Of a stretch of 39,633 nucleotides of DNA, positions 19,289 to 36,612 are shown piece by piece. The DNA lies in contig JASLVU010000001.1 of assembly GCA_030741225.1 (NCBI GenBank), forward strand, positions 1 through 39,633, written 5' to 3'. This stretch comes from Candidatus Poseidoniaceae archaeon (GTDB taxonomy: Archaea; Thermoplasmatota; Poseidoniia; Poseidoniales; Poseidoniaceae). A program made the translations under genes and the position numbers. Every line of letters starts with the position of its first letter. The first letter of the stretch is position 1. The notes below the pieces were generated by a model that was not told the origin of the DNA, searched no databases, and saw only the letters and a program-made list of their open reading frames with translations.

Positions 19289-22200
19289 CTATTGATTGAG
19301 CCAAGGACGGAAATGCTGGTCTGCATACGTTCGAGCATAGTCTGCAGGATATCCTGCTGCTATCAGTTGCTGCTCATAAGCAAGTTGTTCTGGAGTGATG
19401 GTCGCATCTACTGGTTGAGGTGTGACGCCAACAGAAGCGTAAGCCATTTGTTGTTGGTCAAACAACTTCTCTTCTTTACTTGCTCCTCGTCCTCGTGCAA
19501 CCACGAAAGTCAAAGCCAAGAGTACAATTGCTGCTCCGATGATTCCGATTGTAAGGAACGACATACCCAAAACTCCGGATTCTGACTGCGTTGCATCAGT
19601 ATCTGTAGAACCATCGTCACCGCTGTTTTGAGTGGTGTCATCGTCAACAACGGTTTGATTGGTATCCGTTTGATTTTGGTCGGAATTGTCAGGGTCGATT
19701 GGGTTTGTAGGTTCGTCAATTGGGGTATCTTTCTCACACCCGTCAGGCCCTACGACCGTTCCAGCAACGGTGTCTAGACATTTGTCAATAGCGTTGCTCA
19801 CTCCATCGCCGTCATCATCAGCAGGAGGGCAACCGTTTCCACCGTCTCCTCCTGCAATCCCTGCAACATCAGGGCAAGCATCGCCGTCAATACCATCTGG
19901 ATTATCTCCGTAAGAGTCTCCATCTGTGTCGAGGGATTGAGACTTATCAAACGGCCAAAGGTCGTTGAGGTTCGAGACTCCATCGCCATCGAGATCTGCG
20001 CATCCGATTCGGTCTACTGTTGAGTTTCCGTACGTTGTAGGACAGTCATCGACCACGTTGTCACCGGTGTCGGTCGTATTGTATCCATCACGATCTTCAT
20101 CATTCGCCCACAGTTCTTCTTCGTTTTGAATGTAAAACGGAATCCCAATTTTTTCGTTGTTCGATTCATTCGATTCGGTTAATGAGTCCTCAACATCGAT
20201 AGTAAGGCGGCAATTGTAATACCCGCTTGCTTGTTCATCGACGGTTGCGTAATATTCACTGCCTGAGCCAAATGTGGTGTTGTAGACTCCGTTGACAACA
20301 ACGGTCTTTGTTGCCATTCGTGCAACTTGAGCCCCATTTGAATCGATGAGGTCAAGGTGGAGAATAATCGATGTCGAAAATGCTTCACCGCGTAGACTTA
20401 CAAGTTCCCAAGTGATTTGGTTTTCTGAGCCCGATGTGTGGTTGGTTGGGCAAACAAGTGACAAAACTGCAATGTCGGCTGGAGCGGAGTCGAGTAGGGT
20501 AATCGTAAGATTGTAATTTCCTGCGTCACCACCCGATTGTACGGTTAGAATGTAGTCTTTCGTTACGCCCTCCATGTCGGTGTTGTAAGAGTTGAAAAGA
20601 AGGCCGAACGTTGTGTTGTCTGCGCTTGCAATCGAGTTACCGTTTGCATCTTCGAGGGTTGCTGTAAACGCTAAAGCGGAGTCAGCATTGAAATCTATCT
20701 GGAAGTTCTTACCGTCGTTGATTGTAAATGTATAGACATCCGAAACGTCAAGCCCGCTGAAACACCCTGTGCCGTCAACGGTTGGGTTTTGTCCGATGTT
20801 TGAACCTGTACCAGACGATGCGTCTTGTCCAAGTCCGATATCGTTTTGCTGACCGCAATTAAATGAATTTGGATCGACGCCCTCTGTCTCGATGACGAGG
20901 GTGTAAACGCCAAGGCTGTCAAAGCCTGTAACGCTGATGTAAAATGTGCCGCCGGAGCCAGCAAATGATGTGCTGTCCGAAGTTGTCACTACTTCATCTG
21001 TAGAGCCGCCGGACCATGGACGATCAAACCATTCTCCTTGATCATCTCGAAGGTATAAATCGGCATCTTGGTCAGCGGAATTGATGAGTGTTACTGTTAG
21101 ATTTAGACCGGGAGAAATATCGATTTCATACCAATCTTCGTCATCAACATCTTCGTGGACGCATCCGGTGATGGTCATCGAAATGTCAGTACCGAGTTTG
21201 AATGCTGATGCTGCGTCGCCACCGGCGTCGCCTGATGTAATGCCTGCTTCAATAGCATCATTTTGTGCAGGGCACGAAGTTGCTTTCGTGTCGATGAGAA
21301 TCTCTTCCTCGACAGCAAATGAGTTATCTTCTTCATTCAATTCATCAATTTGCTCGTCGTAGTCAGCTACGACAATGAGGGTATAGTTTCCTCCAGGGGT
21401 GTTTGTAGGAATTACTACCGATAATTGATACATTCCACTTTCGTTTATATCAAGAGCAGGAATGGTGGTATTTCCAATCTCAATGTCGTGGTCTGCCAAA
21501 CCGGAATCAACCGACAACAAAACACTAACGAGTGCTGATGATGCAGCGAGGCGGCCAACATTGGATGCTTCGAAATCAACGGCAACATTGCTTCCTGCTG
21601 ACGAGGTTGTAAACGATGTAGCATTGTCGATTACCAAATTCGCTTTCGGTGCAGAATAATTTGTCCACACATCCATGGTCCAATTTACTCCCGTGCCTGA
21701 ACGTGACAGATTGACGTAGTATGAATCGCCAATGCCATCGTACGAGCTGCCAACGGTTGATACTCCGCCTGACCCCCCAAAGTATACGACATCTGAATCC
21801 ACAGAATTTAATCCACTGTCAACCAAGTACAAGTAAACAAGCACAGTAGATTCCAGAGTAATTGAAATTTCAATGGTGTGGTTTTCCGGTACATCAAAGG
21901 AAAAAACATCGTTCTCTTCGATTCCATCGATGCACCCCGTATACGAAGCCGTTACGTTCGTGCCAAGTGGCGCAGTAACATTCGCTTCATCTGCGGGCGC
22001 ATCGGAACCAAGTCCAGCATCATCCTTACCGTTTGGATGCAGATCGTCACATGATTCTCCAACAAGCATAACGCCGTCGGAAGCGAGGTTGTTGTTCGTG
22101 TCGTTAAACTCAGTGATGTTGTTGTAACCATCCGCCCAAACAATCCAGTAGTATGTACCGTTTGCGAGGTTGTTCGGCAAAGTAACAGACGCGTTGGTGG

Positions 22201-23053
22201 TTCGACTGGTATTTTCTGCAAGCGCCCCTTCGTTTTGAGACAATGATATGAGTTCGTCGAACTGGTCAAAAGTACGGTCGGTTGAAAGAATGAATTGAAC
22301 TTCGAAAGGATCGGATGTCGTGTTGTAAATGTTTTCGACGACATACTCAACATTTACCGTCGCCCCAGGTTGTCCAGATGCTGGTTCCGTAATCGAGGAT
22401 ATAATCAAATCAGGACGCGGCGGGGTGTTGTTGGTCCATGTTCGTAAAGTGTACTGTCCATCTCCACTGTATGCTCGAACGTTGATGTAAAAAGTCGAGG
22501 CGACACCAGAGAATGAAGTTCCTGTCGTTGATACTTTTTCAAGCGGGTCGCTGTATTCTGACCAATCGTAATCGTATTCGTTGCCGGTTGAGTCAACCAA
22601 ATAAAGATCAAAATCGGCACCAGCAGGAACTACGAGTTCGACATCAACATCCTTTCCAGTGGTTGTTGTAATTGTGTACCAGTCATCGGTATCGGTTGCA
22701 TCGACGCACCCATTAACTCCAGTCGTACCTGAATTTGGATTTGTACCCAAAGAACGTGAAGTGTTGGAGTCGGCACCAGCATCTCCATTGGAGCCCCCAT
22801 CTGTCTGAAGTGACGAGGGGGTTGGACATGCCGCTCTACCGCTGGTTGAGGTGGTCTTCGGCATCAAAATCTCAAGTGACTTCAAACCTATAAATCCAAC
22901 ATCATCAAGTGGCAATTTTGATTCTTCAATCGGAGCGATAATTGCCACATCATCGCTTTTTTCAACATCGACGAGGGCTGCGGCCAAGGGTGAAATCGCT
23001 GCAACAAAAAACAAAAAAATTAGGCTCAGGGCTGTAAAGCGGCCGTTCTGCAT
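19289..23053 (-). CDS. Giant modular cell-surface protein (about 1254 aa): signal peptide, alternating PPC-like and CARDB-like domains, TSP3-like repeats, TM anchor and cytoplasmic tail
   Basis: Lies in ORF 19289..23083. The first ATG at 23053 gives the signal peptide MQNGRFTALSLIFLFFVAAISPLAAA. Four PPC-like modules are marked by C-x-D/E...DWY or DVY...DLYL...(Y/F)Y(I/V)xV...YTL, at roughly 22436-22831, 21662-22051, 20885-21277 and 20492-20860. Three CARDB-like modules are marked by PDLIIS.., ANLVID.., ADIAVL.. and end in NDTNN / NEEDN / NESNN, at roughly 22088-22417, 21320-21649 and 20153-20482. The TM is FLTIGIIGAAIVLLALTFVV at 19496-19570. Confidence 0.8.
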   Translation of the reverse strand: MQNGRFTALSLIFLFFVAAISPLAAALVDVEKSDDVAIIAPIEESKLPLDDVGFIGLKSLEILMPKTTSTSGRAACPTPSSLQTDGGSNGDAGADSNTSRSLGTNPNSGTTGVNGCVDATDTDDWYTITTTTGKDVDVELVVPAGADFDLYLVDSTGNEYDYDWSEYSDPLEKVSTTGTSFSGVASTFYINVRAYSGDGQYTLRTWTNNTPPRPDLIISSITEPASGQPGATVNVEYVVENIYNTTSDPFEVQFILSTDRTFDQFDELISLSQNEGALAENTSRTTNASVTLPNNLANGTYYWIVWADGYNNITEFNDTNNNLASDGVMLVGESCDDLHPNGKDDAGLGSDAPADEANVTAPLGTNVTASYTGCIDGIEENDVFSFDVPENHTIEISITLESTVLVYLYLVDSGLNSVDSDVVYFGGSGGVSTVGSSYDGIGDSYYVNLSRSGTGVNWTMDVWTNYSAPKANLVIDNATSFTTSSAGSNVAVDFEASNVGRLAASSALVSVLLSVDSGLADHDIEIGNTTIPALDINESGMYQLSVVIPTNTPGGNYTLIVVADYDEQIDELNEEDNSFAVEEEILIDTKATSCPAQNDAIEAGITSGDAGGDAASAFKLGTDISMTITGCVHEDVDDEDWYEIDISPGLNLTVTLINSADQDADLYLRDDQGEWFDRPWSGGSTDEVVTTSDSTSFAGSGGTFYISVTGFDSLGVYTLVIETEGVDPNSFNCGQQNDIGLGQDASSGTGSNIGQNPTVDGTGCFSGLDVSDVYTFTINDGKNFQIDFNADSALAFTATLEDANGNSIASADNTTFGLLFNSYNTDMEGVTKDYILTVQSGGDAGNYNLTITLLDSAPADIAVLSLVCPTNHTSGSENQITWELVSLRGEAFSTSIILHLDLIDSNGAQVARMATKTVVVNGVYNTTFGSGSEYYATVDEQASGYYNCRLTIDVEDSLTESNESNNEKIGIPFYIQNEEELWANDEDRDGYNTTDTGDNVVDDCPTTYGNSTVDRIGCADLDGDGVSNLNDLWPFDKSQSLDTDGDSYGDNPDGIDGDACPDVAGIAGGDGGNGCPPADDDGDGVSNAIDKCLDTVAGTVVGPDGCEKDTPIDEPTNPIDPDNSDQNQTDTNQTVVDDDTTQNSGDDGSTDTDATQSESGVLGMSFLTIGIIGAAIVLLALTFVVARGRGASKEEKLFDQQQMAYASVGVTPQPVDATITPEQLAYEQQLIAAGYPADYARTYADQHFRPWLNQ
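19733..20104 (-). repeat. Thrombospondin type 3-like calcium-binding repeats (D-x-D-x-D-G-x-x-D-x-x-D-x-C)
   Basis: Residues 994-1117 of the giant protein read NDEDRDGYNTTDTGDNVVDDCP, CADLDGDGVSNLNDLWPFD, LDTDGDSYGDNPDGIDGDACPD and ADDDGDGVSNAIDKCLD. Confidence 0.6.
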
Positions 23054-23108
23054 AGGAAACGGGTGTTCATGGTCCGTTATCAAACCTCGGATGAGGGGTC
23101 ATGAGAGT

Positions 23109-25716: not shown

Positions 25717-27018
25717 TCAAGCCTCTTCAACGACGCAAATCACGAGAGTTTCGGAGCCTGAATGTTGGATGAGAAACGCTTCTCTACGGCCATGCCGGCG
25801 GGATAGTTGTCGATCAAAAGCACCCTGGATTTTCGGTTGAGTGTCCGGGGGGAGAGGCGCTCGAACCGTCAGTTGCGAGATATCGTTTTCCAAACATAAT
25901 TCAACCACTTCATCAACGGTCTCAAGCGTAAGTTTGGTGTGTGCAAGAGCGACTATTCGGCCAGTAGCCTGCACCATCAACCGATTGTTTTCACCGTCGA
26001 TTCGGAGGGGTTTTTGATGATGGATTTGGGGGCGACGTCCTTCGACTTCATTCCACGTGATTTCATCGGATTTGGTGACCGTGTGAATCCAATCGGTTGC
26101 AAGGCCGCTTTCGACCAATGCAGCATCAAGTATGGTCACATATTCTCCCCTTTGAGGGGTTTTCTGAGTCTGGCGAGGGATTCCGTCACCGTGCTTAATC
26201 GGGAGGCCGCCAGAAACAACTTTCGCGTCCTCAGTGATCATTGGAGGGATTCGAACAAATCGGCGAGCGTGTTGGGCTGATGCTGCTCCGCCAAGCCAAA
26301 GTGCGAGGCGGTCGATGCGCCCTCGGCCGCGCGAAGTCCAAACCCAGGTGCGTGCAATTCCTTGCCATACTTGGTCAACCATAGCCTCAACATCCAATCG
26401 CTGTTGATGTGAAAGACGAGGGGATAAATCCAACAGGATAGAAGGGCCTGCTGGCCCATGTTTGAGGTGATTTTTCCAACCTTGGAACACTTCATCGAGT
26501 CGCGGAGCCATTTCATTCAAACCGTGCGTTCTACTGTTTCTTGGTCGAGCGGGGTCAAGGTGTAAAAAGGCGATAGATGGCATCGAATGAAGTTGGAAAT
26601 GGTCGGCAATAGACGCACAAACAACCGCTCCATCTCTGCCGTCTCCGGACAGAATTCGGGTTTGGAGAAAATAATCAGTCGTACTTTCGTTGCGATAATT
26701 AGCAATTGACTGTATGTTTACTGCGCTTGCTTGAGCCCGAGCGGGATTTAACTCCACTCCAATTCCTGGGCGCTGCAACAGAGCGATGTGGGCGCCAAGC
26801 TGTATTCCACTGCCGCAGGCACAATCCAAAATATACCCCTCTGGAAGTTGAAGTTCGGTGAGCAGTTTGGAACGGGCAAGTGCAACTTGCCAAGGAGTTG
26901 CGAGAGGTTGTCCTTCATCCGCGTGATAGAACACCAATTCTTTCCCAGCAGTCTTGTCAGGGGAAAATTCAACCAACCCGTTCGTTGAGGTTATTTTGGG
27001 GTCGAAGATTTGACTCAT
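25717..27018 (-). CDS. Class I SAM-dependent methyltransferase with a long C-terminal (THUMP-like?) extension; probable RNA methyltransferase
   Basis: ATG at 27018, 9 nt after the pyrE stop. SAM motif I is ILDCACGSGIQLG, followed by an acidic post-I motif (GVELNP) and then FLHLDPARP. The C-terminal roughly 120 aa (...ISQLTVRAPLPPDTQPKIQGAFDRQL) resemble the THUMP-like tail of an uncharacterised bacterial methyltransferase family. Confidence 0.6.
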   Translation of the reverse strand: MSQIFDPKITSTNGLVEFSPDKTAGKELVFYHADEGQPLATPWQVALARSKLLTELQLPEGYILDCACGSGIQLGAHIALLQRPGIGVELNPARAQASAVNIQSIANYRNESTTDYFLQTRILSGDGRDGAVVCASIADHFQLHSMPSIAFLHLDPARPRNSRTHGLNEMAPRLDEVFQGWKNHLKHGPAGPSILLDLSPRLSHQQRLDVEAMVDQVWQGIARTWVWTSRGRGRIDRLALWLGGAASAQHARRFVRIPPMITEDAKVVSGGLPIKHGDGIPRQTQKTPQRGEYVTILDAALVESGLATDWIHTVTKSDEITWNEVEGRRPQIHHQKPLRIDGENNRLMVQATGRIVALAHTKLTLETVDEVVELCLENDISQLTVRAPLPPDTQPKIQGAFDRQLSRRHGRREAFLIQHSGSETLVICVVEEA

Positions 27019-27744: not shown

Positions 27745-30700
27745 ATGTCGAATACAGAAAGTGGGGGCCAAAAACAAGGAATAAATCCCTTGATTGGTCT
27801 CGACATTGAACGTTTAGAGGCAGAAATGCTTCGATATCATCAATGGCTTGATGAGCACGCTGATGAAGCATACATTGTTGCTGAAAAGGCGAGAAATTTG
27901 GGTTATGATCACAAAGAATTCGTTGAAATTCCACGAGCTGCCGACCTCGCAGGAAGAACCGAAAAATTACTCGTCGAGTATCTTGATGGGTATGAAGTGG
28001 CCGAGGATATTCGCAAACTTTTGGCAGAACACGACCGAGAGACAACATCGATTATGATGGCCCAGAGTGTAGCAAGAGGGTTTCGTGAACGAGGCTACGA
28101 CCTCATCACAGCTATCGATGTTGGGCTCCGTGTTGGCCTTGCTGTCCTCACCGAAGCGGTTCTGGTTGCTCCTCTGGAAGGTATCAGCGAAGTCCGGCTG
28201 TTGAACAATGTGGATGGTTCTCAGTTTTTGTCTGTACACTTTGCCGGGCCAATCCGAGCTGCGGGTGGAACCGCTCAAGCATTAGCTGTTTTGATTGCTG
28301 ATATGATTCGCAGAGAACTCAATATTGGACATTACCAGCCGACCGACCCTGAAGTTGAACGCGTGAAAGAAGAATTCGGTTTGTATCGTGGAAATCTGCA
28401 ATACAGGCCGTCTCCTGCAGAAATTGATGAGATTGTTCGCGCATGCCCGATTATGATTAACGGAGAGTCGACTGAACGGATTGAATGTGCCGGTTATGGG
28501 CGAGTTCGAAACATCGACGAAGCACGTATTCGTGGAGGTGTTTTGCTTGTTATTGGTGAAGGTATGTGCCTCAAAGCACCAAAGATTCGCAAACATACCG
28601 AACGTCTCAAAGTCCCCGGATGGGAATTTATATCGAAATTCGCTTCTAAGGGGAAAGACTCCGAATCCAAAGGAGAAAGTGGCTCCTTCAAGTCGAGAAA
28701 AGTTCCGACGATTACGAAATTTATGAAGGACATAATCGCTGGAAGGCCTGTTTTTGGAGCACCTCTTCAACCGGGTGGCTTTCGCCTACGATACGGGCGT
28801 GCACGACCCTCTGGACTTGCCGCAGCCTCGACCAACCCCGCATCAATGCTGGCCATGGACGATTTCATTACAATAGGCACACAAATGAAAATTGAACGGC
28901 CTGGTAAGGCGTGTGCTATCACCCCTTCGGACAATACAGATGGGCCATGGGTCGTGCTAAATGATGGCAGATTCTTGCGTATTGATGATGCTCGAAGTTA
29001 TTCTGCTGTTCGTTCGAAAGTCGGGTGTGTTTGGGACAATGGAGAGTTGGTTCTTGGGTATGGAGAATTTATGGAAAACAACAAAAATTTGGTTCCAGCT
29101 GGATACTGCAACGATTGGTGGGCGAGCGATCTCCTTGAAATGCTTAATTCCGATTCGACTGTTGAAGAGTTTGCCAAATTAAGCGGGCTTTCAGTCGATG
29201 ATTTACCCGAAGGATTACCTGGGCTTCAACCAGAAGATGTTGAAAATGCAAATACTCAATTCCATATCCGCAGAAAATGGCATGCCTATTTGACCAAGTG
29301 TGTTCTAAAATGGGAACAATTCAAAGCAATTTCTTTGCGATTTAAAACTGCAATTCCAAATCCACAAAACCCTTGGTTTCTCGACCTACCCATTGAATGG
29401 GTCCCTCCTCTGTTGGAATTGTTGGAAAACGCAATCATTGAACCGATTGGAACACAGAATTCTGGTGAAAAAAAGGATGATGAAGTCTTTATGGCGCACC
29501 CTATACATGAGCCCCGGCAACTTCGAATTGTCGATGGGGTAAAAGGTTGGACGCCAAAGGTAATGGAAATTTTGAGACCTGAATCCTTTGATGACCTTTC
29601 AAAACATGAAATTCCCGGGCCGCCCCAAAGGCCCGTCAAACCGATATTCTCCAAGGAAATACCTGAAGTTTGGGCGCTCATTCAGCACGGATTTGCTAAG
29701 GCATCTGCGATGATACTCGGGCTCCGGCACCACCACGATGGTGAAGATTTGGTGATTACATCAGGGTGGCCTGCAATGTTGGAGGCTTTTGGATTTGGAG
29801 ATGGTGGTGAGAGCCCTCTTCGTATAGTCGATGCGGGTTCAAAGTTCAACTCGCGAATCAAACAATTACGTGATGCGCATGCAACCTTGTCTGAAGAGCG
29901 AGCGCGCCTAAAGGAACTTCGACAATCTCGTTCTACTGTTCGTATAGCCGCCGAAACCGATGCTCGACAGAGAGGATTAGGTATTGCAGAAACAGATGAG
30001 GTTGGGCGGCTGGCAGAAGCAAAAGTCGAAGATACTGGCCCTGCGGACCCTCAAAAATACCTCGCTGCTCAAATTCATGAAGATGATCATGCTGTTGATG
30101 GAATTCTCCAAATCATCCGTAAGATCTCCGACCTGCGTTGGGAACATGCCGCCCCAGTTCGTGTTGGGTGTCGTATGGGACGGCCAGAAAAAGCGGCGCC
30201 TCGAATAATGAATCCGATGACTCATGCTCTGTTTCCTATCGAGTTAAACGGCGGAAATCAACGATTGCTCGCAAACGCTGCTGAAAAACAAAGTATTCGT
30301 GTTCAAGTTGGGCGGCGAATTTGCAGTAAATGTGGGAAAGAATCCCCATTCATCCTCTGTCATCACCGGCTGGTAGACCCGGACGGCATGGAAAGGGTTG
30401 GCGAGCCGTGTGGCGGACGAACCAAAATGAAAGAAAACGAGAACTCTAAACGCCGCAGAAGAGGAGAATTGCAGACGGTTCGTTTGGACACAATGATTGA
30501 AGATGCTCGAATTCGTCTTGGGATTGACAGGATTCCTCGACAAGTGAAGTGTATGAAAAAGATTGCCAGCAGAGACCAAACTCCTGAGGCGATTGAAAAG
30601 GGGTTGCTTCGTGCAAAACACGAGCTCCCTGTTTTTCGAGACGGTACGGTTCGTTTCGATATGAGTGATGTCCCCATTACCCACTTCTCTCCGAGAGAGG

Positions 30701-31866
30701 TGGATGTCTCATGGCAAACATTGCATTCGTTAGGATATACGCATGACTTCGAAGGAGTCCCTCTCACCAACGACGAGCAAATGTTGGAAATTTTTCCCCA
30801 AGATTTCATCGTCAGTAAAGCAGCAGGCGATTTCTTCGTGCGTACAGCCCAATTCATTGATGAACTTCTCGTACGATACTATGGTTTGGAACCCTACTAC
30901 AATGTCGATACTCCTGATGACCTTGTTGGGCACCTCATTTGCGCTCTTGCACCCCACACCTCCGGAGGAGTGTTGAGCAGAATCATCGGTTGGGCCGACT
31001 GTTCTGGTGGATATGCCCATCCCTTGTTTCACGCTGCAAAGCGAAGAAATTGCGATGGAGACGAGGATGCTATCATGCTCCTCATGGACGGACTACTCAA
31101 CTTCAGTAGAGAGATTTTACCCGCAAATAGAGGAGGTTTGATGGATGCCCCTTTGGTTTTGACGACACGTCTCAACCCTACTGAAGTCGATAAAGAAGCA
31201 TTGAATGTTGATTCAGGGTGGTTTTACAGCCGTGATTTTTATGAAACCACACTCTCGCAACCGCATCCAAAAGAATGTGCTGAGCGAATGGATTTTGTCG
31301 AACGGCGACTCGGTTCTGTTGCTGCTGTACGCGGTTACGGCTATACTCACGATTGTCACGCTATTGACCAAGGGCCTGCACTCTGTGCATACAAGACCCT
31401 TGACACCATGATTGACAAAATGAACGGTCAATTGGACCTCGGCCATCGATTGAGAGGGGTTGATGTGCGAACTGTAGCATCGAGTGTGGTACGTTCGCAC
31501 TTTTTGCCGGACCTTAGAGGAAACCTCAATGCTTATGCGCGTCAAAAAATTAGGTGCCTAAAATGTGGCCATTCGTATCGAAGAATGCCGGTAGCAGGCA
31601 CATGCATCCAGTCAAAAAAGGAAACTGGGCGAGGACTGTCAAGCGTTGGCGTTTCAAAATCTGAAGGAGGCTTGTGTGGCGGGAATCTTGCACTTACAGT
31701 ATCTGAAGGTGCGGTGAGAAAATACATCAAAGTTACAAAGCACGTCATGGCAACATATGGTGTCGATATGTACACAAGGCAGAATGTCGAGTGGTTAGCC
31801 GATAGTGCGGATTCATTGTTCAACAACGATCGAGCGAAGCAACTCTCTCTAGCTGACTTCCTCTAA
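27745..31866 (+). CDS. polC: DNA polymerase II (PolD) large subunit DP2
   Basis: 1373 aa. DP2 signature blocks are present: NCDGDEDAIMLLMDGLLNFS, GGLMDAPLVLTTRLNP and LAPHTSGGVLSRIIGW. There are Cys-rich zinc modules (CSKCGKESPFILCHH...CGG and CLKCGHSYRRMP...CGGNL). No intein-like insertion recognised. Confidence 0.9.
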   Translation: MSNTESGGQKQGINPLIGLDIERLEAEMLRYHQWLDEHADEAYIVAEKARNLGYDHKEFVEIPRAADLAGRTEKLLVEYLDGYEVAEDIRKLLAEHDRETTSIMMAQSVARGFRERGYDLITAIDVGLRVGLAVLTEAVLVAPLEGISEVRLLNNVDGSQFLSVHFAGPIRAAGGTAQALAVLIADMIRRELNIGHYQPTDPEVERVKEEFGLYRGNLQYRPSPAEIDEIVRACPIMINGESTERIECAGYGRVRNIDEARIRGGVLLVIGEGMCLKAPKIRKHTERLKVPGWEFISKFASKGKDSESKGESGSFKSRKVPTITKFMKDIIAGRPVFGAPLQPGGFRLRYGRARPSGLAAASTNPASMLAMDDFITIGTQMKIERPGKACAITPSDNTDGPWVVLNDGRFLRIDDARSYSAVRSKVGCVWDNGELVLGYGEFMENNKNLVPAGYCNDWWASDLLEMLNSDSTVEEFAKLSGLSVDDLPEGLPGLQPEDVENANTQFHIRRKWHAYLTKCVLKWEQFKAISLRFKTAIPNPQNPWFLDLPIEWVPPLLELLENAIIEPIGTQNSGEKKDDEVFMAHPIHEPRQLRIVDGVKGWTPKVMEILRPESFDDLSKHEIPGPPQRPVKPIFSKEIPEVWALIQHGFAKASAMILGLRHHHDGEDLVITSGWPAMLEAFGFGDGGESPLRIVDAGSKFNSRIKQLRDAHATLSEERARLKELRQSRSTVRIAAETDARQRGLGIAETDEVGRLAEAKVEDTGPADPQKYLAAQIHEDDHAVDGILQIIRKISDLRWEHAAPVRVGCRMGRPEKAAPRIMNPMTHALFPIELNGGNQRLLANAAEKQSIRVQVGRRICSKCGKESPFILCHHRLVDPDGMERVGEPCGGRTKMKENENSKRRRRGELQTVRLDTMIEDARIRLGIDRIPRQVKCMKKIASRDQTPEAIEKGLLRAKHELPVFRDGTVRFDMSDVPITHFSPREVDVSWQTLHSLGYTHDFEGVPLTNDEQMLEIFPQDFIVSKAAGDFFVRTAQFIDELLVRYYGLEPYYNVDTPDDLVGHLICALAPHTSGGVLSRIIGWADCSGGYAHPLFHAAKRRNCDGDEDAIMLLMDGLLNFSREILPANRGGLMDAPLVLTTRLNPTEVDKEALNVDSGWFYSRDFYETTLSQPHPKECAERMDFVERRLGSVAAVRGYGYTHDCHAIDQGPALCAYKTLDTMIDKMNGQLDLGHRLRGVDVRTVASSVVRSHFLPDLRGNLNAYARQKIRCLKCGHSYRRMPVAGTCIQSKKETGRGLSSVGVSKSEGGLCGGNLALTVSEGAVRKYIKVTKHVMATYGVDMYTRQNVEWLADSADSLFNNDRAKQLSLADFL

Positions 31867-31939
31867 GGTTTGAGTTCGTGCACGAAACCGGAATTTACTT
31901 TTTATCAAATGAGGGGTTGTTGCCTATCGAGGGGCAGTT

Positions 31940-32515
31940 ATGGACGAGGCAACACTTGTTCTGTACGTGATACTGTATGTACTTTTACCGTTATGGGGTA
32001 TAGCGAGCATGTTGGATTGGTGGTGCCATAAACAAACCTCAATTGAATCGACTTCGGGACTTCATGAAGCGAATATTCACTGCTTGATGGGTTTTCAAAT
32101 CGCAATTCCTTTGGTACTCTCATTGATTTTTGAAGTCAATGTTTTCGTTCTCCTTTTGTGCCTTGGTGCACTTATCGCTCATGAATTGGTTGCGCATTAT
32201 GATGTCCATTACACAACCGACAAGCGCGAAATTAGTATCTGGGAAGTCCATGCTCACAATTATTTGGCAACACTGCCATTTTTCCTGTTTTTACTCATCG
32301 TCGTTCGAAAGTGGGAGGTTTTTATCGACCTTATCACACTCAACTGGTCTGGTGGATTTGGATTAGAATGGAGACAAGAACCACTTGGAGCCACTGGCAA
32401 TTACGCTGCATTTTACATCGGCTCGATGTCAATTCTCGTGGTTGTGCCTTACTTCCAAGAATGGTGGCGATGTTGGAACTACCAAAGAAAGCAAGCGAAG
32501 GAAGTGGTTGATTGA
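31940..32515 (+). CDS. Small His-rich integral membrane protein (191 aa); candidate membrane metalloenzyme
   Basis: ATG at 31940. It has four to five hydrophobic helices. Nine His residues cluster at helix ends: WWCHKQT, GLHEANIH, IAHELVAHYDVH and EVHAHNY. It is the first gene of a translationally coupled cassette. Confidence 0.55.
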   Translation: MDEATLVLYVILYVLLPLWGIASMLDWWCHKQTSIESTSGLHEANIHCLMGFQIAIPLVLSLIFEVNVFVLLLCLGALIAHELVAHYDVHYTTDKREISIWEVHAHNYLATLPFFLFLLIVVRKWEVFIDLITLNWSGGFGLEWRQEPLGATGNYAAFYIGSMSILVVVPYFQEWWRCWNYQRKQAKEVVD

Positions 32516-33648
32516 GCGTGTATATTACAAGTACAGGGATTTTTCTTCCTGGCCCATCGGTTGCTGTTGAAGAAGTCGAAAACATCCTCGGAGCAGTTCA
32601 TGGAAAACCCTCATCGCTTCGAGTCCAAATACAAAAGGCGAACAAAATACAAACTCGGCATTATGCAATTGATGAAAATCAGCAGACGACCCACAGCAAT
32701 ACTGAAATGGCTGCAAATGCTGCTGAACAATGTCTTGACAGGGCATTTATTGGTCGAGAAAAAGTCGGCATGCTCGCCGTTGCATCAACTCAAGGAGATT
32801 TGCCGGCTCCAGGTATGGCAAGCATGGTTCAAGCAGAACTCGAATTGCCCGAAATTGAAATTTTAACAACCCATGGGATTTGTTCTTCTTCGATTATGGC
32901 TCTCAAGGCAGCATGGAACAGTATGCGGCTTGAAGAGCACGAAGCGGCATTGGTTGTTTCGAGCGAATTAGCAAGCCGGTTGTTGAAAAAACAACGCTAT
33001 GAAGCCGCTACAACCTCGACTTTTGCAACAAAACGGATTGATTTCAGCACCGAATTTCTTCGATGGATGCTGTCCGATGGAGCTGGAGCTCTCTTACTTC
33101 AAAATAAACCGGCGCCGAAGGGACTCAGTCTTCGAATCGATTGGATTCGAGCATTTTCACACGCCCATGCGCTCCCTACGTGCATGAGTGTAGGTTCTGC
33201 GGGACGAAATGAAGATAAGAGAACTTGGCAAGACTACAACACATACGCTGAAGCAGAGAAAGACGGTGCATTGCTCCTCAGACAAGATGTCCGCCTACTT
33301 GAAAACCTCATGCGAATGGGAGTTGACGGATACCTACGGCTGGTCGATGAAGGTGTGAGTAATCCAAGCAAAGTCGATCATTTCTTGTGCCATTATTCAA
33401 GTCACCATTTCCGCAACAAAATCCTTGAATTGCTCGATAGAGCAGGTGTCGGAATTCCTGAAGAAAAATGGTGGACAAACCTCTATACGCGTGGAAACAC
33501 CGGTTCTGCATCGCTTTTCATTATGCTCGATGAATTCCTTCGTACCGATGAAGTCACTATTAAAGAGGGAGAAAGTGTTCTTTGCTTTGTTCCCGAAAGT
33601 GGTCGTTTCAATACGACCTACGTACATCTCACGGTGGTGAGCCAATGA
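32512..33648 (+). CDS. Beta-ketoacyl synthase III (FabH-like) family condensing enzyme
   Basis: The TTG at 32512 overlaps the upstream TGA (TTGA); an in-frame GTG at 32518 is the alternative start. The N-terminus YITSTGIFLPG matches the family. A candidate Cys-His-Asn catalytic triad is seen in THGICSSSIMAL, FLCHYSSHHF and TRGNTGSASLFIML. Confidence 0.75.
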   Translation: MSVYITSTGIFLPGPSVAVEEVENILGAVHGKPSSLRVQIQKANKIQTRHYAIDENQQTTHSNTEMAANAAEQCLDRAFIGREKVGMLAVASTQGDLPAPGMASMVQAELELPEIEILTTHGICSSSIMALKAAWNSMRLEEHEAALVVSSELASRLLKKQRYEAATTSTFATKRIDFSTEFLRWMLSDGAGALLLQNKPAPKGLSLRIDWIRAFSHAHALPTCMSVGSAGRNEDKRTWQDYNTYAEAEKDGALLLRQDVRLLENLMRMGVDGYLRLVDEGVSNPSKVDHFLCHYSSHHFRNKILELLDRAGVGIPEEKWWTNLYTRGNTGSASLFIMLDEFLRTDEVTIKEGESVLCFVPESGRFNTTYVHLTVVSQ

Positions 33649-34391
33649 AAAATGGAGAAATAAAAATAGAAACCGAACTGGAACATGAAATTGAAGTCGA
33701 CGAGGTAAGTGAGGGTTTGAATCCACATGCCCAAATTTGCTTGCAACATCTATTGCGAGTGTGGCTAGGATTTGAGCGAGACCTTGCCAAAGTTCCTCTG
33801 CTGCGACGTATCGATCTAGGGACATATACTGCTGAGGACCATCAGCTCTTTCTGTTGAATATTCGTCAGCAAGTCATTGAAGGCTCAAGATGGATTACCA
33901 GAACGGCAAGTAGCTTTGACAGAGACCATGCAGAAATTCGTTCAACAGTCATTAGTCATGCAGTTGACGAACACCGAGACTACGAGATGTTGGAAAAGGA
34001 CTTTGTCGCTTCTGGAGGCCGACTTGAGGACATACTCAGCATGGAGCGGAATATTGGTTCAGAAGCACTTCATGGATTCCTTATGCACAAGTCATCCCAA
34101 CCGAACCCAATTGATTTGTTAGGAGCGATGTGGATTATCGAAGGCCTTGGGGAAAAAATGGCAACCTCTTGGGCTGAAAGAATTCAGGAATTAACCGGAC
34201 TGGGTAAAGATTCAACTCGATTTATGACTTATCATGGACACAACGATAGTGAACATATGGAACGCTTCTATGCTACATTGGACAGTGTTTGCACCGATGA
34301 AAAGGCAATTCAGCGTATTGTCAAAACAGCAAAAGTCGTTGCCCGCCTCTATCGTTTGCAGTTGGAGGAGTTGGAACAGAGTGGCGAATGA
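33645..34391 (+). CDS. Heme-oxygenase-like fold, iron-containing redox enzyme family protein (putative di-iron oxidase)
   Basis: The ATG at 33645 overlaps the KAS III stop (ATGA). The protein looks all-helical and has carboxylate/His ligand-like motifs: HAVDEHRDYEML, WIIEGLGEKM and YHGHNDSEHMERF. Confidence 0.55.
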   Translation: MKNGEIKIETELEHEIEVDEVSEGLNPHAQICLQHLLRVWLGFERDLAKVPLLRRIDLGTYTAEDHQLFLLNIRQQVIEGSRWITRTASSFDRDHAEIRSTVISHAVDEHRDYEMLEKDFVASGGRLEDILSMERNIGSEALHGFLMHKSSQPNPIDLLGAMWIIEGLGEKMATSWAERIQELTGLGKDSTRFMTYHGHNDSEHMERFYATLDSVCTDEKAIQRIVKTAKVVARLYRLQLEELEQSGE

Positions 34392-35298
34392 AAAAGTACT
34401 GTCAAGAAAAGAGCGTCGTGCTGAACGCAGACTGCAGAAAGCCTTGGAGAAAAATCACGGGCGAATGCCTGCTTCATTGAGCGACGCTTTAGGAGGGGAT
34501 GAAAGTCTGCCCTTGGATTCAGTAGCCAAAGAGTATTGGCTGAAAGATCTTCAAAATCCCCTAAGGATTATCGTACTTCCTACGCTCAAAATCCTCTTGA
34601 GTATCACACTTCACATCACGTATTACTTGAAACGCTTATCACCAATCCAATGGCGTGCACACAGATTCTTACAATGGCAAATCTGCTTCTTCATGAAGTA
34701 TTTCGTTCGACCAGAAGCAAATATTTTGATTCTACGACACTTTCAAGCCGAAAGTAATCTGTTGAATTTTGTCATAGATAATTCGGGTAAAGACGGTGTT
34801 GCACCTGTTGAAATCTATCCAAAAGAAATTCAAGATTTAATGGTACAAACATTTGTTCATCACGATCAAGGGATATTAATGACTATGCGAGATTTGGGGC
34901 AAATGGATACTTCAAATTGGCCGATTAAAGAGAAGGATTTGTCATGGCAAAACTGGGAGCCGGTACGTATTGACTATGGTTCAAAAAAGAAAAAGTGGAC
35001 GCAATTTCTTGATTTTGAAACTGCTCACGAATTGTTCAAGACCACGTTTTGTTTCTGGTTAACCGCAAAAGAATACGAGGCGGCAATCAATTCATTCCAA
35101 TTCGACCATTCTGTAGGGATTCGAATAGATGAAATTGTTGGGGCTGCACACTTTGCAGACTTAGCATACAATCGATTCCCGATGATTCTTGTTGGGCCTA
35201 CTGGTCTCTCTTATCGTTTCTTGATGCACGGTTTCTTTGTTGAGCATGCGCATGCTCATTTGGAAAAAATTCGTTTATCGCTTGGTTTAGAAAACTAA
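34381..35298 (+). CDS. Hypothetical protein (about 305 aa) of unknown family, last gene of the cassette
   Basis: The frame of ORF 34234..35298 is used. The in-frame GTG at 34381 overlaps the upstream stop by 11 nt, whereas the ATG at 34234 would overlap the upstream gene by 158 nt. The N-terminus is basic (SRKERRAERRLQKALEK) and there is one hydrophobic helix (LRIIVLPTLKILLSITLHITYY). No motif recognised. The start is uncertain. Confidence 0.5.
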   Translation: MANEKVLSRKERRAERRLQKALEKNHGRMPASLSDALGGDESLPLDSVAKEYWLKDLQNPLRIIVLPTLKILLSITLHITYYLKRLSPIQWRAHRFLQWQICFFMKYFVRPEANILILRHFQAESNLLNFVIDNSGKDGVAPVEIYPKEIQDLMVQTFVHHDQGILMTMRDLGQMDTSNWPIKEKDLSWQNWEPVRIDYGSKKKKWTQFLDFETAHELFKTTFCFWLTAKEYEAAINSFQFDHSVGIRIDEIVGAAHFADLAYNRFPMILVGPTGLSYRFLMHGFFVEHAHAHLEKIRLSLGLEN

Positions 35299-35317: not shown

Positions 35318-35443
35318 TTATTTTCGGTGATGGATAAACACGTTGCCGCAAACCTTGCACCAAATTTTGAGGCCGTCTTTGCGAGGTGTTGCTCCAGCAA
35401 CATCGATTTCAACGCCGCATGGACAAGTCGCCGAGTTCTCCAT
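35318..35443 (-). CDS. Possible small zinc-ribbon protein (41 aa)
   Basis: MENSATCPCGVEIDVAGATPRKDGLKIWCKVCGNVFIHHRK has a CxC...CxxC arrangement. It lies 38 nt downstream of trm5 on the same strand. The longer track ORF (to 35503) would overlap trm5. Confidence 0.3.
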   Translation of the reverse strand: MENSATCPCGVEIDVAGATPRKDGLKIWCKVCGNVFIHHRK

Positions 35444-35481
35444 GTTCAAGCCGATAAGGTCCCGCTTGATGAACTCAACGC

Positions 35482-36612
35482 TTAGGATGAAAGAAACATC
35501 CATGCTTCAAAACATACGAAAACCTTGGTCATAGAAAAACCCTTGACTTCATCAACAGCCAACTGCTCTACAACACCTCCAGCTGCAAGAACTGCTTCGC
35601 TAATTGAACTTTCAATATCTGATATCGCAGTACGTTCGGCAATCGCCCAACCGCGCAAAACAGTCGTATGTCCACGACTCATCAAAGGTAAAAGGGCGGG
35701 TATATGTTCTATGCTTTGGTGTGGAAGGTTTACCAGCAGCAGGTCGACTACGCCTTGATTTTTGGCATCAAGCGGCCAACTTTTCGCGTCACAACATGAA
35801 ATTTCACTCGGCTCTAAGGGTTCAGCAACATTGCCCTCGGAATCTTTTCGCCGTGAAGTAAAGTATTCAATATTCAATTCAAGTAATTCCACTGCGTCAG
35901 GGTTAAGGTCGCCTGCTAAATAGCCTGAAAGAAGGTCCGGTTCCTTTAGCAGAGAGGCCATACTCGGGCCGACACCTGCGTAAGGGTCTGCGACAACCAG
36001 CCCCCTTCCAAGTTTGTTCCGTAACTTCTTCGATGAATGAAGAGTTGCCATTCTTTGATTCGAGAGGCGGGCTGAGAAGTAAACCTTGGAAGGGTCAACC
36101 CACAAAAAATACCCGTTTTCTCGAACCCTTGTCCGAGGCGACACGGTTCCATCTCGACTTGCGAGAGGTATGAGTTCTCGAATACGAAATTCTCCCTTCA
36201 CTCCCGAATAAAAGGGAGTTCCGCAGACAAGTCTGACGTGAGGGAATTGTGTAAGCATTGCATCAGCCATCATCTCACCATACTCCCAGATTGATTCACC
36301 AAGTTTCACAATCAGAACATCGCCTTGAATTTCAAATGAACGTGGTAATTCCTCGCTATGCTCAGCAACAAAGTCTTCATCAAGATGGTCGAGCCAATTT
36401 TCAGATTTAGGGCGGACGTTAGCGGGAATATCGACATGGGGGTGCCCGTCCCAAATCGGGTCACCCTCACGAGGCGCCAACTCATTGAGAGGAATGGCAT
36501 TTGTACCATCTTCTAAATTCGTGACGCCGGCAGTGATTGAATTCCATTGCTTTGTGCGGCATAACTCGAGCCAATGTTGGGTTTGTGCCCTCGGCACACT
36601 CAAATGACGCAT
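35482..36612 (-). CDS. trm5: tRNA (guanine37-N1)-methyltransferase Trm5 (Met-10+ family)
   Basis: Trm5/Met-10 blocks are present: FEIQGDVLIVKL, WVDPSKVYFSARLSNQR, VVADPYAGVGP and LLVNLPHQS. The track ORF extends to 36909, but residues upstream of M100 (ATG at 36612) are antisense to dph5 and low in complexity. Confidence 0.75.
   Translation of the reverse strand: MRHLSVPRAQTQHWLELCRTKQWNSITAGVTNLEDGTNAIPLNELAPREGDPIWDGHPHVDIPANVRPKSENWLDHLDEDFVAEHSEELPRSFEIQGDVLIVKLGESIWEYGEMMADAMLTQFPHVRLVCGTPFYSGVKGEFRIRELIPLASRDGTVSPRTRVRENGYFLWVDPSKVYFSARLSNQRMATLHSSKKLRNKLGRGLVVADPYAGVGPSMASLLKEPDLLSGYLAGDLNPDAVELLELNIEYFTSRRKDSEGNVAEPLEPSEISCCDAKSWPLDAKNQGVVDLLLVNLPHQSIEHIPALLPLMSRGHTTVLRGWAIAERTAISDIESSISEAVLAAGGVVEQLAVDEVKGFSMTKVFVCFEAWMFLSS

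Follow-up and report, generated by a model that had tools for sequence, protein, structure and literature searches.

What would a marine archaeon do with a fatty-acyl condensing enzyme and three tightly packed neighboring genes? Poseidoniaceae are among the most abundant archaea of the surface ocean, and they are thought to build isoprenoid lipids yet catabolise fatty acids. We analysed a window (the whole stretch of DNA under study, 39,633 nucleotides) from a Candidatus Poseidoniaceae contig, in which four forward-strand genes at 31940-35298 are flanked by archaeal housekeeping genes. A sequence-only reading had taken these genes for a self-contained biosynthetic module.

Four overlapping genes in an archaeal contig

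The stop-start overlaps described in that reading were all reproduced from the sequence. Gene 1 is an open reading frame of 191 aa (31940-32515) whose TGA stop (32513-32515) shares the tetranucleotide TTGA at 32512-32515 with the TTG start of gene 2 (32512-33648, 378 aa). The stop of gene 2 likewise overlaps the ATG of gene 3 (33645-34391, 248 aa) in ATGA at 33645-33648. Gene 4 (34381-35298, 305 aa) starts at an in-frame GTG at 34381 and shares its first 11 nt with the end of gene 3 (stop at 34389-34391). Purine runs resembling Shine-Dalgarno sequences lie upstream of the starts of gene 2 (AAGGAAG), gene 3 (GGTGGTGAG) and gene 4 (GGAGGAG, 34364-34370). At or beside the position of the gene 4 GTG, an ATG is present in most Poseidoniales relatives, in many cases just 3' of an in-frame stop codon, and the basic N-terminal stretch that follows the GTG is conserved. 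This comparison supports the GTG as the predicted start, and the NCBI annotation gives the identical 305-aa product. Some other gene callers choose a 277-aa form that begins at Met29.

Upstream, the gene for PolD DP2 ends at 31866, and the sequence leaves a spacer of 73 nt (31867-31939, forward strand) before gene 1. The spacer contains, on the same strand, a TATA-like CTTTTTATC (31898-31906) and GAGGGG (31929-31934) immediately 5' of the gene 1 ATG, and we infer that it is probably the promoter and ribosome-binding region of the operon. Downstream of gene 4 are a convergent 61-aa open reading frame (35318-35503, reverse strand) and a Trm5/TYW2 gene.

Gene 2 resembles StlD/DarB-type ketosynthases

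Gene 2 had been described as a KAS III-like, FabH-like enzyme with an apparently intact Cys-His-Asn triad. The condensing enzyme and its triad held up, whereas the likeness proved to be to StlD/DarB and not to FabH. Enzymes of the StlD/DarB type catalyse the head-to-head joining of two fatty-acyl chains. Gene 2 matched the StlD/DarB family model NF005293 of NCBIfam with 382.7 bits (E 2e-114), below the cut-off of 450, and the DarB model NF053539 with 323.4 bits, below the cut-off of 550. All tested ketosynthase (KS) orthologues from related cassettes also fell under 450 on NF005293, at 372-399 bits, and in a neighbor-joining tree gene 2 was placed in a cassette-specific KS clade. Because the cassette KS scores lie below the StlD/DarB cut-off, the chemistry may differ from cyclohexanedione formation.

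The match to the StlD structure 5gk0 ran end to end (residues 2-376, E 9.7e-72), and the catalytic residues lined up: C124, E152, H294 and N329 of gene 2 align with C126, E154, H302 and N337 of StlD, numbered by subtracting an assumed 20-residue tag. In StlD, Cys126 is reported to be the catalytic cysteine and Glu154 the base (Mori et al. 2016). Might gene 2 nonetheless be a housekeeping FabH that starts bacterial-type fatty-acid synthesis, next to unrelated genes? Its Pfam ACP_syn_III domains would fit, as would the RefSeq name of the Pseudoalteromonas orthologue, 'beta-ketoacyl-ACP synthase III'. However, the FabH models TIGR00747 and NF006829 gave only 62.5 and 80.5 bits against cut-offs of 292.1 and 249. 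Moreover, the four genes co-occur, co-evolve and overlap, and no ACP, FabD, FabG, FabZ or FabI is linked to them, which makes this explanation scarcely credible. Taken together, these comparisons show gene 2 to be a predicted StlD/DarB-clade beta-ketosynthase/cyclase-like condensing enzyme with its catalytic residues intact.

Gene 3 is a predicted heme-oxygenase-like di-iron oxidase

The assignment of gene 3 to the heme-oxygenase-like di-iron oxidases (HDOs) was borne out by a match to PF14518 (Haem_oxygenas_2) with 37.4 bits and E 3e-9, above the Pfam cut-off of 28.9. A search with the single sequence also matched PDB entry 3dde at 3e-5, which became 1.5e-9 when the family profile was used, and more weakly MboA (E 0.096). 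In an alignment of 16 orthologues, residues E79, H105, E109, H110, D112, E117 and E166 were invariant, as was the motif H197-x3-D201-x2-H204. This motif and E166 have the canonical HDO ligand spacing, whereas the 3dde alignment gives E79, H105, E109, H110 and D112 an ambiguous register against the E...ExxH of canonical HDOs. Compared with UndA, BesC, SznF, CADD, AetD, PolF and MboA, gene 3 retains the H-x3-D-x2-H motif and a helix-3 Glu, and it has further invariant Glu and His residues. Its similarity to characterised HDOs is very low, however, and its closest solved relative, the TENA-THI4-like 3dde, has no known function. We conclude from the profile matches that gene 3 is a predicted HDO. 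To our knowledge, no characterised HDO is the partner of a ketosynthase or fused to one.

Gene 4 is a DUF6999 protein unrelated to DarA candidates

By profile, gene 4 is a DUF6999 protein, matching positions 5-274 of the 275 in PF22523 with 299.1 bits (E 3e-89) against a cut-off of 27. The product is all-helical with a single hydrophobic helix (61-81), and R119, H120, F130, N134, P147, H161, D162, D211, D242 and H283 are invariant in the family alignment, E288 nearly so. Its AF2 model (pLDDT 81.2, pTM 0.79) had no significant match and no solved structural relative in the PDB. The invariant His, Asp and Glu residues and the hydrophobic helix are our basis for calling it a putative metal-binding tailoring enzyme, with a model that matches no solved metalloenzyme.

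The size of gene 4, about that of DarA, and the resemblance of gene 2 to DarB (323 bits) could suggest a canonical DarAB(C) dialkylresorcinol cluster in which gene 4 is the DarA aromatase. In addition, Poseidoniaceae have a cluster that pipelines of the antiSMASH type flag as 'resorcinol', according to a retracted paper (PMC10434046). We compared gene 4 with DarA candidates, which were picked by their stlC-stlD-stlE-like position and not by a curated model. The Burkholderia candidate neighbors a bona fide StlD/DarB KS (599.8 bits on the StlD/DarB model) and an ACP, the Streptomyces candidate neighbors a KS, and the two are 35% identical to each other and look flavodoxin-like. Neither BLASTP nor hhalign found any similarity between them and the all-helical gene 4, and the cassette has no ACP. 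A homologue of the putative DarA was likewise absent within 8 kb in each of the 80 related loci examined. A canonical cluster is therefore very improbable, and without a DarA aromatase the cassette is not the characterised DarAB pathway.

Gene 1 belongs to an undescribed family of His-rich membrane proteins

Gene 1 encodes a membrane protein with five long helices. Profile searches with it returned no Pfam or NCBIfam match, and across its 121-member family no Pfam match was common to more than 20 members or significant. On sequence grounds it is a member of no described family. The 121-sequence alignment has invariant residues D26, H30, E43, H47, H81, H86, D88, E102, H104, H106, E174, R177 and C178, grouped at one membrane face. 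The protein has eight His, six of them invariant, and not the nine counted earlier. Its AF2 model is confident (pLDDT 94.9, pTM 0.86), and a Foldseek search of the PDB found no structural match (best E 1.1).

The sequence-only reading was reminded of the His boxes of membrane desaturases. This holds as an analogy, since the His residues cluster at predicted cytoplasmic ends of transmembrane helices as in SCD1, AlkB, UndB and the PF00487 superfamily, but no sequence, profile or structural homology could be detected. Gene 1 is half the size of those enzymes, has six invariant His where they have eight or nine, and lacks HxxxH/HxxHH boxes. Alignment to Poseidoniales desaturases with hhalign gave a probability of 0.2%, that is, no relation to fatty-acid desaturases. 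Membership in the membrane fatty-acid desaturase/hydroxylase superfamily finds no support in the Pfam, hhalign and Foldseek results. Invariant His, Asp and Glu residues among hydrophobic helices suggest a putative metal centre, in a model that matches no solved metalloenzyme.

The cassette is conserved in archaea and bacteria

We examined synteny across related genomes and found the four genes in identical order in 74 of 80 loci; in four of the other six a contig end interrupts the cassette, and the remaining two are rearranged. The carriers are about 55 Poseidoniales genomes together with Myxococcota, Gammaproteobacteria, Acidobacteriota and other bacteria (at least four bacterial phyla), so the cassette is archaeal and bacterial alike and not archaea-specific. 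In Pseudoalteromonas sp. THAF3 the whole cassette is present at 47-59% identity. The archaeal-type loci among the 80 kept come from records labelled Poseidoniaceae, Poseidonia, Poseidoniales or broader archaeal names, plus three probably mis-binned contigs. Beyond the four, bacterial loci had no gene family in common with archaeal ones, and across them the cassette is accompanied by no ACP, ligase, ketoreductase, dehydratase or thioesterase, which strengthens the proposal of a self-contained module. In about 40 Poseidoniales loci the gene directly 3' of gene 4 encodes a fatty-acid desaturase (PF00487), and two Myxococcota loci have one next to the cassette.

In comparison with the closest relative, dS was saturated for each of the four genes while dN was 0.035-0.057, and we conclude that all four are under strong purifying selection. 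Because dozens of species share this order and the tight junctions, and dN is low against saturated dS, the arrangement is not due to chance. The four neighbor-joining gene trees, which carry no support values, are congruent, and in them the archaeal copies form one clade adjoining marine Myxococcota. Since the trees agree and the archaeal copies form this single clade, the cassette is apparently of bacterial origin, and the whole operon probably entered an ancestor of its present Poseidoniaceae carriers in a single transfer.

Distant DUF6999 genes (25-33% identity) lie directly after an HDO gene, which follows a KS gene wherever the contig extends that far, and one such genome encodes a 624-aa KS-HDO fusion. 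These neighborhoods show that linkage to a KS and an HDO extends through the whole DUF6999 family and that the His-rich protein of gene 1 was added in the clade of the four-gene cassette. A plasmid of Nostoc flagelliforme carries a degenerate KS-HDO-DUF6999 remnant.

A proposed pathway to an oxidised lipid

With the evidence for and against in about equal balance, we propose that the cassette is a self-contained biosynthetic operon of bacterial origin in which DarB-like condensation is followed by tailoring by the HDO and the putative metalloproteins. DarB/StlD enzymes use 3-oxoacyl and 2-enoyl thioesters from primary metabolism, and DarB clusters that lack DarA and have products not yet known exist (PMC6836626; 10.1101/2022.10.20.513026). 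The cassette KS would likewise join these two thioesters head to head, giving a carboxy-dialkyl-cyclohexanedione-type intermediate. Poseidoniales widely carry beta-oxidation genes and transcribe them (10.1101/2020.09.16.299958). Both thioesters could come from this active beta-oxidation, so that no ACP or activating enzyme would be needed nearby. The HDO, translationally coupled to the KS, may use O2 to oxidise this intermediate, most economically through an oxidative decarboxylation or desaturation by analogy with UndA; this step would aromatise the ring and so stand in for the missing putative aromatase DarA. At the membrane, the DUF6999 and gene 1 proteins might supply electrons or oxidise the product further, by hydroxylation to a hydroquinone-like, quinone-like or otherwise oxygenated dialkyl-aromatic lipid. 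The fatty-acid desaturase that is the fifth gene in many relatives could modify the alkyl chains. The most likely product is thus an oxidised cyclohexanedione/resorcinol-type lipid, with product and roles of genes 1 and 4 predicted from this scheme. From an earlier list of olefin, resorcinol-type compound or oxidised lipid, the latter two are favoured and a simple olefin less so.

The sequence-only reading had also recognised no characterised pathway in the cassette, and the comparisons agree. Like the DarAB(C)/StlCDE systems of Pseudomonas aurantiaca, Photorhabdus, Chitinophaga and the cyanobacterial bartolosides (BrtCD), it is small and easily transferred and has an StlD/DarB-clade KS core with the same Cys, Glu, His and Asn; as with brt and stl, primary metabolism can supply its fatty-acyl thioester substrates. 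Unlike them, it has an HDO, DUF6999 and a small His-rich membrane protein in place of the DarA/StlC aromatase and the ACP, its KS falls below the curated cut-off in a clade of its own, and its host is an archaeon. CylC-type dimetal-carboxylate halogenases are associated with DarAB clusters (PMC8406957). The cyanobacterial 'DarA-less' clusters (PMC6836626) resemble it in their small size, DarB-like KS without adjacent aromatase and unknown product, and it matched no composition given there. The OleABCD olefin pathway was rejected, with no conserved OleB, OleC or OleD neighbors and no OleA model among the matches of gene 2.

Alternatively, the KS could condense its substrates head to head without cyclisation, in the manner of OleA/NocG/PpyS, to a 2-alkyl-3-keto acid. 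The HDO would decarboxylate this acid oxidatively, with a desaturase-type enzyme also acting in relatives, and the products would be hydrocarbon-type lipids (long-chain ketones, enones or olefins) and not a resorcinol. UndA-type HDOs make alkenes from fatty acids. So do UndB-type membrane desaturase-like enzymes (PMC11204201), and the sub-threshold KS, the desaturase-family fifth gene of relatives and the loci without an aromatase also agree with such a route. We nevertheless regard it as unlikely: the KS is far nearer StlD (E 1e-71 over its full length, with the Glu154 equivalent kept) than any FabH-type model, neither OleA nor PpyS is among the NCBIfam models matched, and no OleBCD genes lie nearby.

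Less likely still, the product may be a redox-active dialkyl-(hydro)quinone-like membrane molecule with a physiological role (electron carrier or antioxidant), not a signal or antibiotic, with genes 1 and 4 as ring hydroxylases. Three of the four products are putative metalloproteins of oxidative function, and two of these are membrane-associated, which points this way, as do the strong purifying selection, the wide retention in a streamlined planktonic archaeon and the position of the operon among housekeeping genes. Yet among bacteria with a ubiquinone or menaquinone of their own the cassette has a patchy distribution, archaeal-type loci among the 80 kept carry only Poseidoniales-type or broader archaeal labels apart from the three doubtful contigs, and no methyltransferase or prenyltransferase is linked to it.

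To return to DarB-like condensation followed by tailoring, a bolder and more tentative version is that KS, HDO, DUF6999 and His-rich membrane protein form an unrecognised pathway, in which the HDO and two structurally unmatched metalloprotein families may turn a DarB-type product into a new non-isoprenoid, oxygenated dialkyl-aromatic or quinone-like lipid. If true, this would be an aromatase-independent branch of head-to-head fatty-acyl condensation chemistry, with an HDO able to work with a ketosynthase, to which it is fused in one genome. It would also give a first functional context to DUF6999 and the unnamed His-rich family, both with confident models lacking a solved relative. In that case, Poseidoniaceae would produce a membrane compound derived from fatty acids and bacterial in ancestry, perhaps a marine lipid biomarker that is still unassigned, and the product could serve as a new archaeal biomarker, signal or protective lipid. 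For marine microbiology, the cassette offers a clear example of an entire bacterial operon that became fixed and has been kept across many uncultured Poseidoniaceae species. Pseudoalteromonas sp. THAF3, Halomonas beimenensis, H. stenophila and Alkalimonas amylolytica are cultured carriers, and cultured bacteria of this kind make the hypothesis directly testable.

A four-gene cassette in an archaeal backbone

The cassette comprises four plus-strand genes, gene 1 (31940-32515), gene 2 (32512-33648), gene 3 (33645-34391) and gene 4 (34381-35298), and these open reading frames and their three overlapping junctions are exactly as a sequence-only reading had described them. In the sequence, genes 1 and 2 share TTGA (32512-32515), genes 2 and 3 share ATGA (33645-33648), and gene 4 starts at a GTG (34381) that overlaps the end of gene 3 (TGA, 34389-34391) by 11 nt. 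A purine-rich, Shine-Dalgarno-like run lies ahead of every internal start, and the 73-nt spacer downstream of polD contains a TATA-like CTTTTTATC (31898-31906). Comparison with relatives identified the GTG of gene 4 as the homologous start; most relatives have ATG at this position, often immediately 3' of an in-frame stop. The N-terminal extension that follows is rich in Lys and Arg and is conserved. The identical gene 4 protein was found on 25 contigs.

The window comes from a Candidatus Poseidoniaceae (Marine Group II) archaeon, and the surrounding backbone consists of archaeal housekeeping genes. Upstream are the PolD large subunit DP2 (27745-31866), RNA polymerase subunit D and ribosomal proteins S4 and S13; a Trm5/TYW2 methyltransferase gene lies downstream, as does a gene for a probable diphthine synthase of the tetrapyrrole-methylase family. 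Cassette GC content is 0.42-0.46 compared with a window mean of about 0.47, so composition gives no clear signature of foreign origin. A 61-aa minus-strand ORF (35318-35503) has two CxxC pairs and a zinc-ribbon-like appearance, and shares 22 nt with the 3' end of the Trm5/TYW2 gene. The closest Poseidoniaceae relatives keep it in this place with 70-77% identity, and it is probably a real small gene.

Gene 2 is a StlD/DarB-like ketosynthase and gene 3 a di-iron oxidase family member

Gene 2 (378 aa) had been read as FabH-like with an intact Cys-His-Asn triad. The likeness to FabH did not hold beyond weak scores (62-80 bits against FabH model cut-offs of 249-292), whereas the NCBIfam StlD/DarB family model gave 382.7 bits, although its curated cut-off of 450 was reached neither by gene 2 nor by any cassette orthologue tested (372-399 bits). 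The DarB model gave 323 bits. Gene 2 aligned over its full length to the Photorhabdus StlD crystal-structure sequence (E 9.7e-72), and the triad was borne out by this alignment, in which Cys124, Glu152, His294 and Asn329 pair with StlD Cys126, Glu154, His302 and Asn337. A Burkholderia ketosynthase encoded between a DarA-like gene and an ACP scored 599.8 bits on the StlD/DarB family model, and in a neighbor-joining (NJ) tree without support values the cassette ketosynthases form their own clade, apart from DarA-linked DarBs.

The assignment of gene 3 (248 aa) as a heme-oxygenase-like di-iron oxidase (HDO) was upheld. The protein scores above the Pfam cut-off for the heme-oxygenase-like "iron-containing redox enzyme" family (PF14518), and its family profile matches the TENA/THI-4-like structure 3dde (E 1.5e-9). 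Residues E79, H105, E109, H110, D112, E117, E166 and the motif H197-x3-D201-x2-H204 are invariant in 16 orthologues; the C-terminal half fits the canonical HDO ligand pattern, and the N-terminal ligands are uncertain in register.

Genes 1 and 4 encode conserved helical proteins with sets of invariant residues

Over its full length, the 305-aa gene 4 product belongs to DUF6999 (PF22523, 3e-89), a small family whose members fall into 192 clusters at 50% identity within a set of 1.84 billion representatives. Even distant members retain R119, H120, F130, N134, P147, H161, D162, D211, D242 and H283, and E288 is nearly invariant. The protein has a single hydrophobic helix (residues 61-81), and its AlphaFold model is all-helical (pLDDT 81, pTM 0.79), with no significant match in the PDB. 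The Foldseek list includes the di-iron helical proteins PolF, HrmI, Dps and mini-bacterioferritin, which are a mere hint because all have E >= 2 and TM <= 0.2. A remote relationship to HDOs was rejected, since hhalign gave no match. DUF6999 is mentioned by no paper in the literature library that was searched.

Gene 1 (191 aa) matched no family in Pfam or NCBIfam. A very confident model (pLDDT 94.9, pTM 0.86) contains five long helices, and a search of the PDB returned no structural relative (best E 1.1). Across 121 homologues, D26, H30, E43, H47, H81, H86, D88, E102, H104, H106, E174, R177 and C178 are invariant. Helix boundaries place all of these residues at one membrane face, which the basic C-terminal tail suggests is cytoplasmic, and the cluster looks like a putative membrane-interface metal site. 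The sequence-only reading had counted nine histidines, of which we find eight, and had likened the protein to His-box desaturases and hydroxylases. Homology to fatty-acid desaturases was undetectable, and a miniature desaturase/hydroxylase is unsupported by Pfam scans of the 121 members, hhalign or Foldseek. Five homologues from Halomonas and Alkalimonas (P0328, P0332, P0346, P0358 and P0385) are publicly named "diguanylate cyclase"; neither GGDEF nor any other Pfam domain is present in any family member, and the name looks like a propagated mis-annotation.

The cassette is conserved across archaea and bacteria

A tblastn search of plasmids found genes 1-4 in the same order on pTHAF3_a, an 801-kb replicon of Pseudoalteromonas sp. 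THAF3, with 49, 56, 59 and 47% identity to the window genes, respectively (NZ_CP045419, 702872-706049). RefSeq names these proteins hypothetical protein, KAS III, iron-containing redox enzyme family protein and hypothetical protein. A 634-aa Big_9-like protein 3' of this cassette is not conserved at other loci.

We scanned one genome per GTDB species with a three-sequence DUF6999 alignment as query and kept the best 80 of 213 relatives. Of the 80 kept loci, 74 have genes 1-2-3-4 collinear on a single strand; four others are truncated at a contig end, and the remaining two are rearranged. Archaeal-type loci number 55 and comprise Poseidoniaceae or Poseidonia MAGs plus three bacterial-binned contigs. 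The bins of these three (L026, L043 and L051) are Verrucomicrobiales, "uncultured bacterium" and Salinimicrobium; their cassette is of the archaeal type, at about 80% identity to the window, and they are probably mis-binned Poseidoniales contigs. The 25 bacterial loci come from marine Myxococcota, Woeseiaceae, Steroidobacteraceae, Ectothiorhodospiraceae and other Gammaproteobacteria, as well as Bryobacterales, Obscuribacter and an actinobacterial bin. When flanking ORFs were clustered all against all, only the four cassette families proved common to the archaeal and the bacterial loci. Genes for an ACP, ligase, reductase, dehydratase or thioesterase do not accompany the cassette at the kept loci, which extends to relatives the reported lack of such genes beside it.

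Simple NJ trees of the four proteins, without support values, are congruent and place the archaeal sequences in one clade beside marine Myxococcota. Against the closest relative, all four genes have dN of 0.035-0.057 with saturated dS. When loci L006-L059 were compared with the window, only the nearest subclade (18 loci) had the cassette beside polD; other Poseidoniales clades have it in different genomic surroundings, so it has changed position within the order since it was acquired.

About 40 Poseidoniales loci have a fifth gene directly 3' of gene 4 (for example L034:8912-9769 and L015:8912-9664), encoding a PF00487 fatty-acid desaturase that belongs to either of two distinct types. Two Myxococcota loci also carry a PF00487 gene beside the cassette (L066:8711-9682 and L060:4800-5591), one following gene 4 and the other preceding gene 1. 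This attachment points to a long-alkyl-chain product made at the membrane. The fifth gene has been lost from the window's closest subclade; there and in the window, the convergent zinc-ribbon ORF and Trm5/TYW2 are found instead.

Distant DUF6999 members (25-33% identity) lie directly 3' of an HDO orthologue, with a DarB-like ketosynthase also preceding where the contig extends far enough. One locus, on a 5.9-Mb metagenomic contig, encodes a 624-aa DarB-like ketosynthase-HDO fusion in a single ORF (L091:3936-5810; PF08541 plus PF14518), 4 kb upstream of the distant DUF6999 gene. From this linkage, we conclude that ketosynthase, HDO and DUF6999 form a conserved core. No gene 1 homologue turned up in the longer of these distant loci, and the gene 1 family therefore appears specific to the four-gene clade. 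Nostoc flagelliforme plasmid pNFSY08 (L002, record 305558-308141) carries an unannotated, apparently degenerate ketosynthase-HDO-DUF6999 remnant downstream of a cytochrome P450 gene; its HDO and DUF6999 are partial and gene 1 is absent.

Relation to known pathways and a proposed route

The cassette is a variant of head-to-head condensing-enzyme clusters. Characterised DarB/StlD systems require a DarA/StlC aromatase (PMC6836626), and we took DarA candidates by position from stlC-stlD-stlE-like arrangements in Burkholderia and Streptomyces. These are 35% identical to each other and look flavodoxin-like. DUF6999 was ruled out as DarA, as neither BLAST nor profile comparison (hhalign) found similarity between gene 4 and the candidates and the predicted fold class differs; NCBIfam apparently lacks a DarA model, and the absence of a match for gene 4 there is therefore uninformative. 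Unlike known DarAB systems, none of the 80 kept loci has a DarA-candidate homologue within 8 kb, and unlike the olefin system OleABCD, the cassette is accompanied by no OleBCD genes. The NocG (nocuolin) cluster has a ketosynthase of another clade with FAAL/aminotransferase neighbours (PMC9486936), and the listianol cluster uses canonical DarA and DarB (PMC13192835). The cassette matches none of these characterised clusters. In the literature library searched, no paper links a DarB-type ketosynthase to an HDO or characterises resorcinols in Poseidoniales; all that came to light was a "resorcinol" cluster called automatically by antiSMASH in Ca. Poseidoniaceae, in a retracted paper (PMC10434046). 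"DarA-less" DarB clusters of unknown product are noted in a cyanobacterial review (PMC6836626).

Taken together, we consider it highly probable that the cassette is a self-contained, horizontally acquired and functional operon for lipid-type biosynthesis, and the original view of a fatty-acyl-derived module of a condensing enzyme and putative oxidases was essentially right. That it follows a DarB-like cyclohexanedione/resorcinol route with the HDO as oxidative partner is, by analogy, about an even proposition. On such a route, the ketosynthase would first join two fatty-acyl-derived thioesters head to head. Both 3-oxoacyl and 2-enoyl thioesters are intermediates of beta-oxidation. By analogy with DarB/StlD, one of each would be the substrates (PMC6836626; 10.1101/2022.10.20.513026), and beta-oxidation is widespread and highly transcribed in Poseidoniales (10.1101/2020.09.16.299958). 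Its supply of both substrates would account for the lack of carrier or activating genes linked to the cassette. The HDO, translationally coupled to the ketosynthase in the window and fused to it in one distant genome, would then most plausibly carry out, with O2, the oxidation for which known systems use DarA, perhaps as a UndA-like oxidative decarboxylation of a carboxy-cyclohexanedione to give the aromatised ring. The main alternative is condensation without cyclisation, followed by oxidative decarboxylation to ketones or olefins. Within the cyclohexanedione/resorcinol route, DUF6999 and the gene 1 protein, both of which have metal-site-like invariant residues and membrane helices, might further oxidise the product or deliver electrons; these specific roles are much less certain. 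Two of the cassette's protein families have neither a described function nor a structural relative. The cassette as a whole is conserved between domains, and cultured bacteria that carry it, such as Pseudoalteromonas sp. THAF3 and Halomonas beimenensis, make it open to experimental test.

Other open reading frames in the window

Three minus-strand ORFs, 5108-8110 (1000 aa), 4162-5070 (302 aa) and 25717-27018 (433 aa), had no Pfam match, at E <= 1e-5 for the first two and E <= 1e-3 for the third. A 1264-aa protein with a CARDB domain (19289-23083, minus strand) is probably a surface protein.
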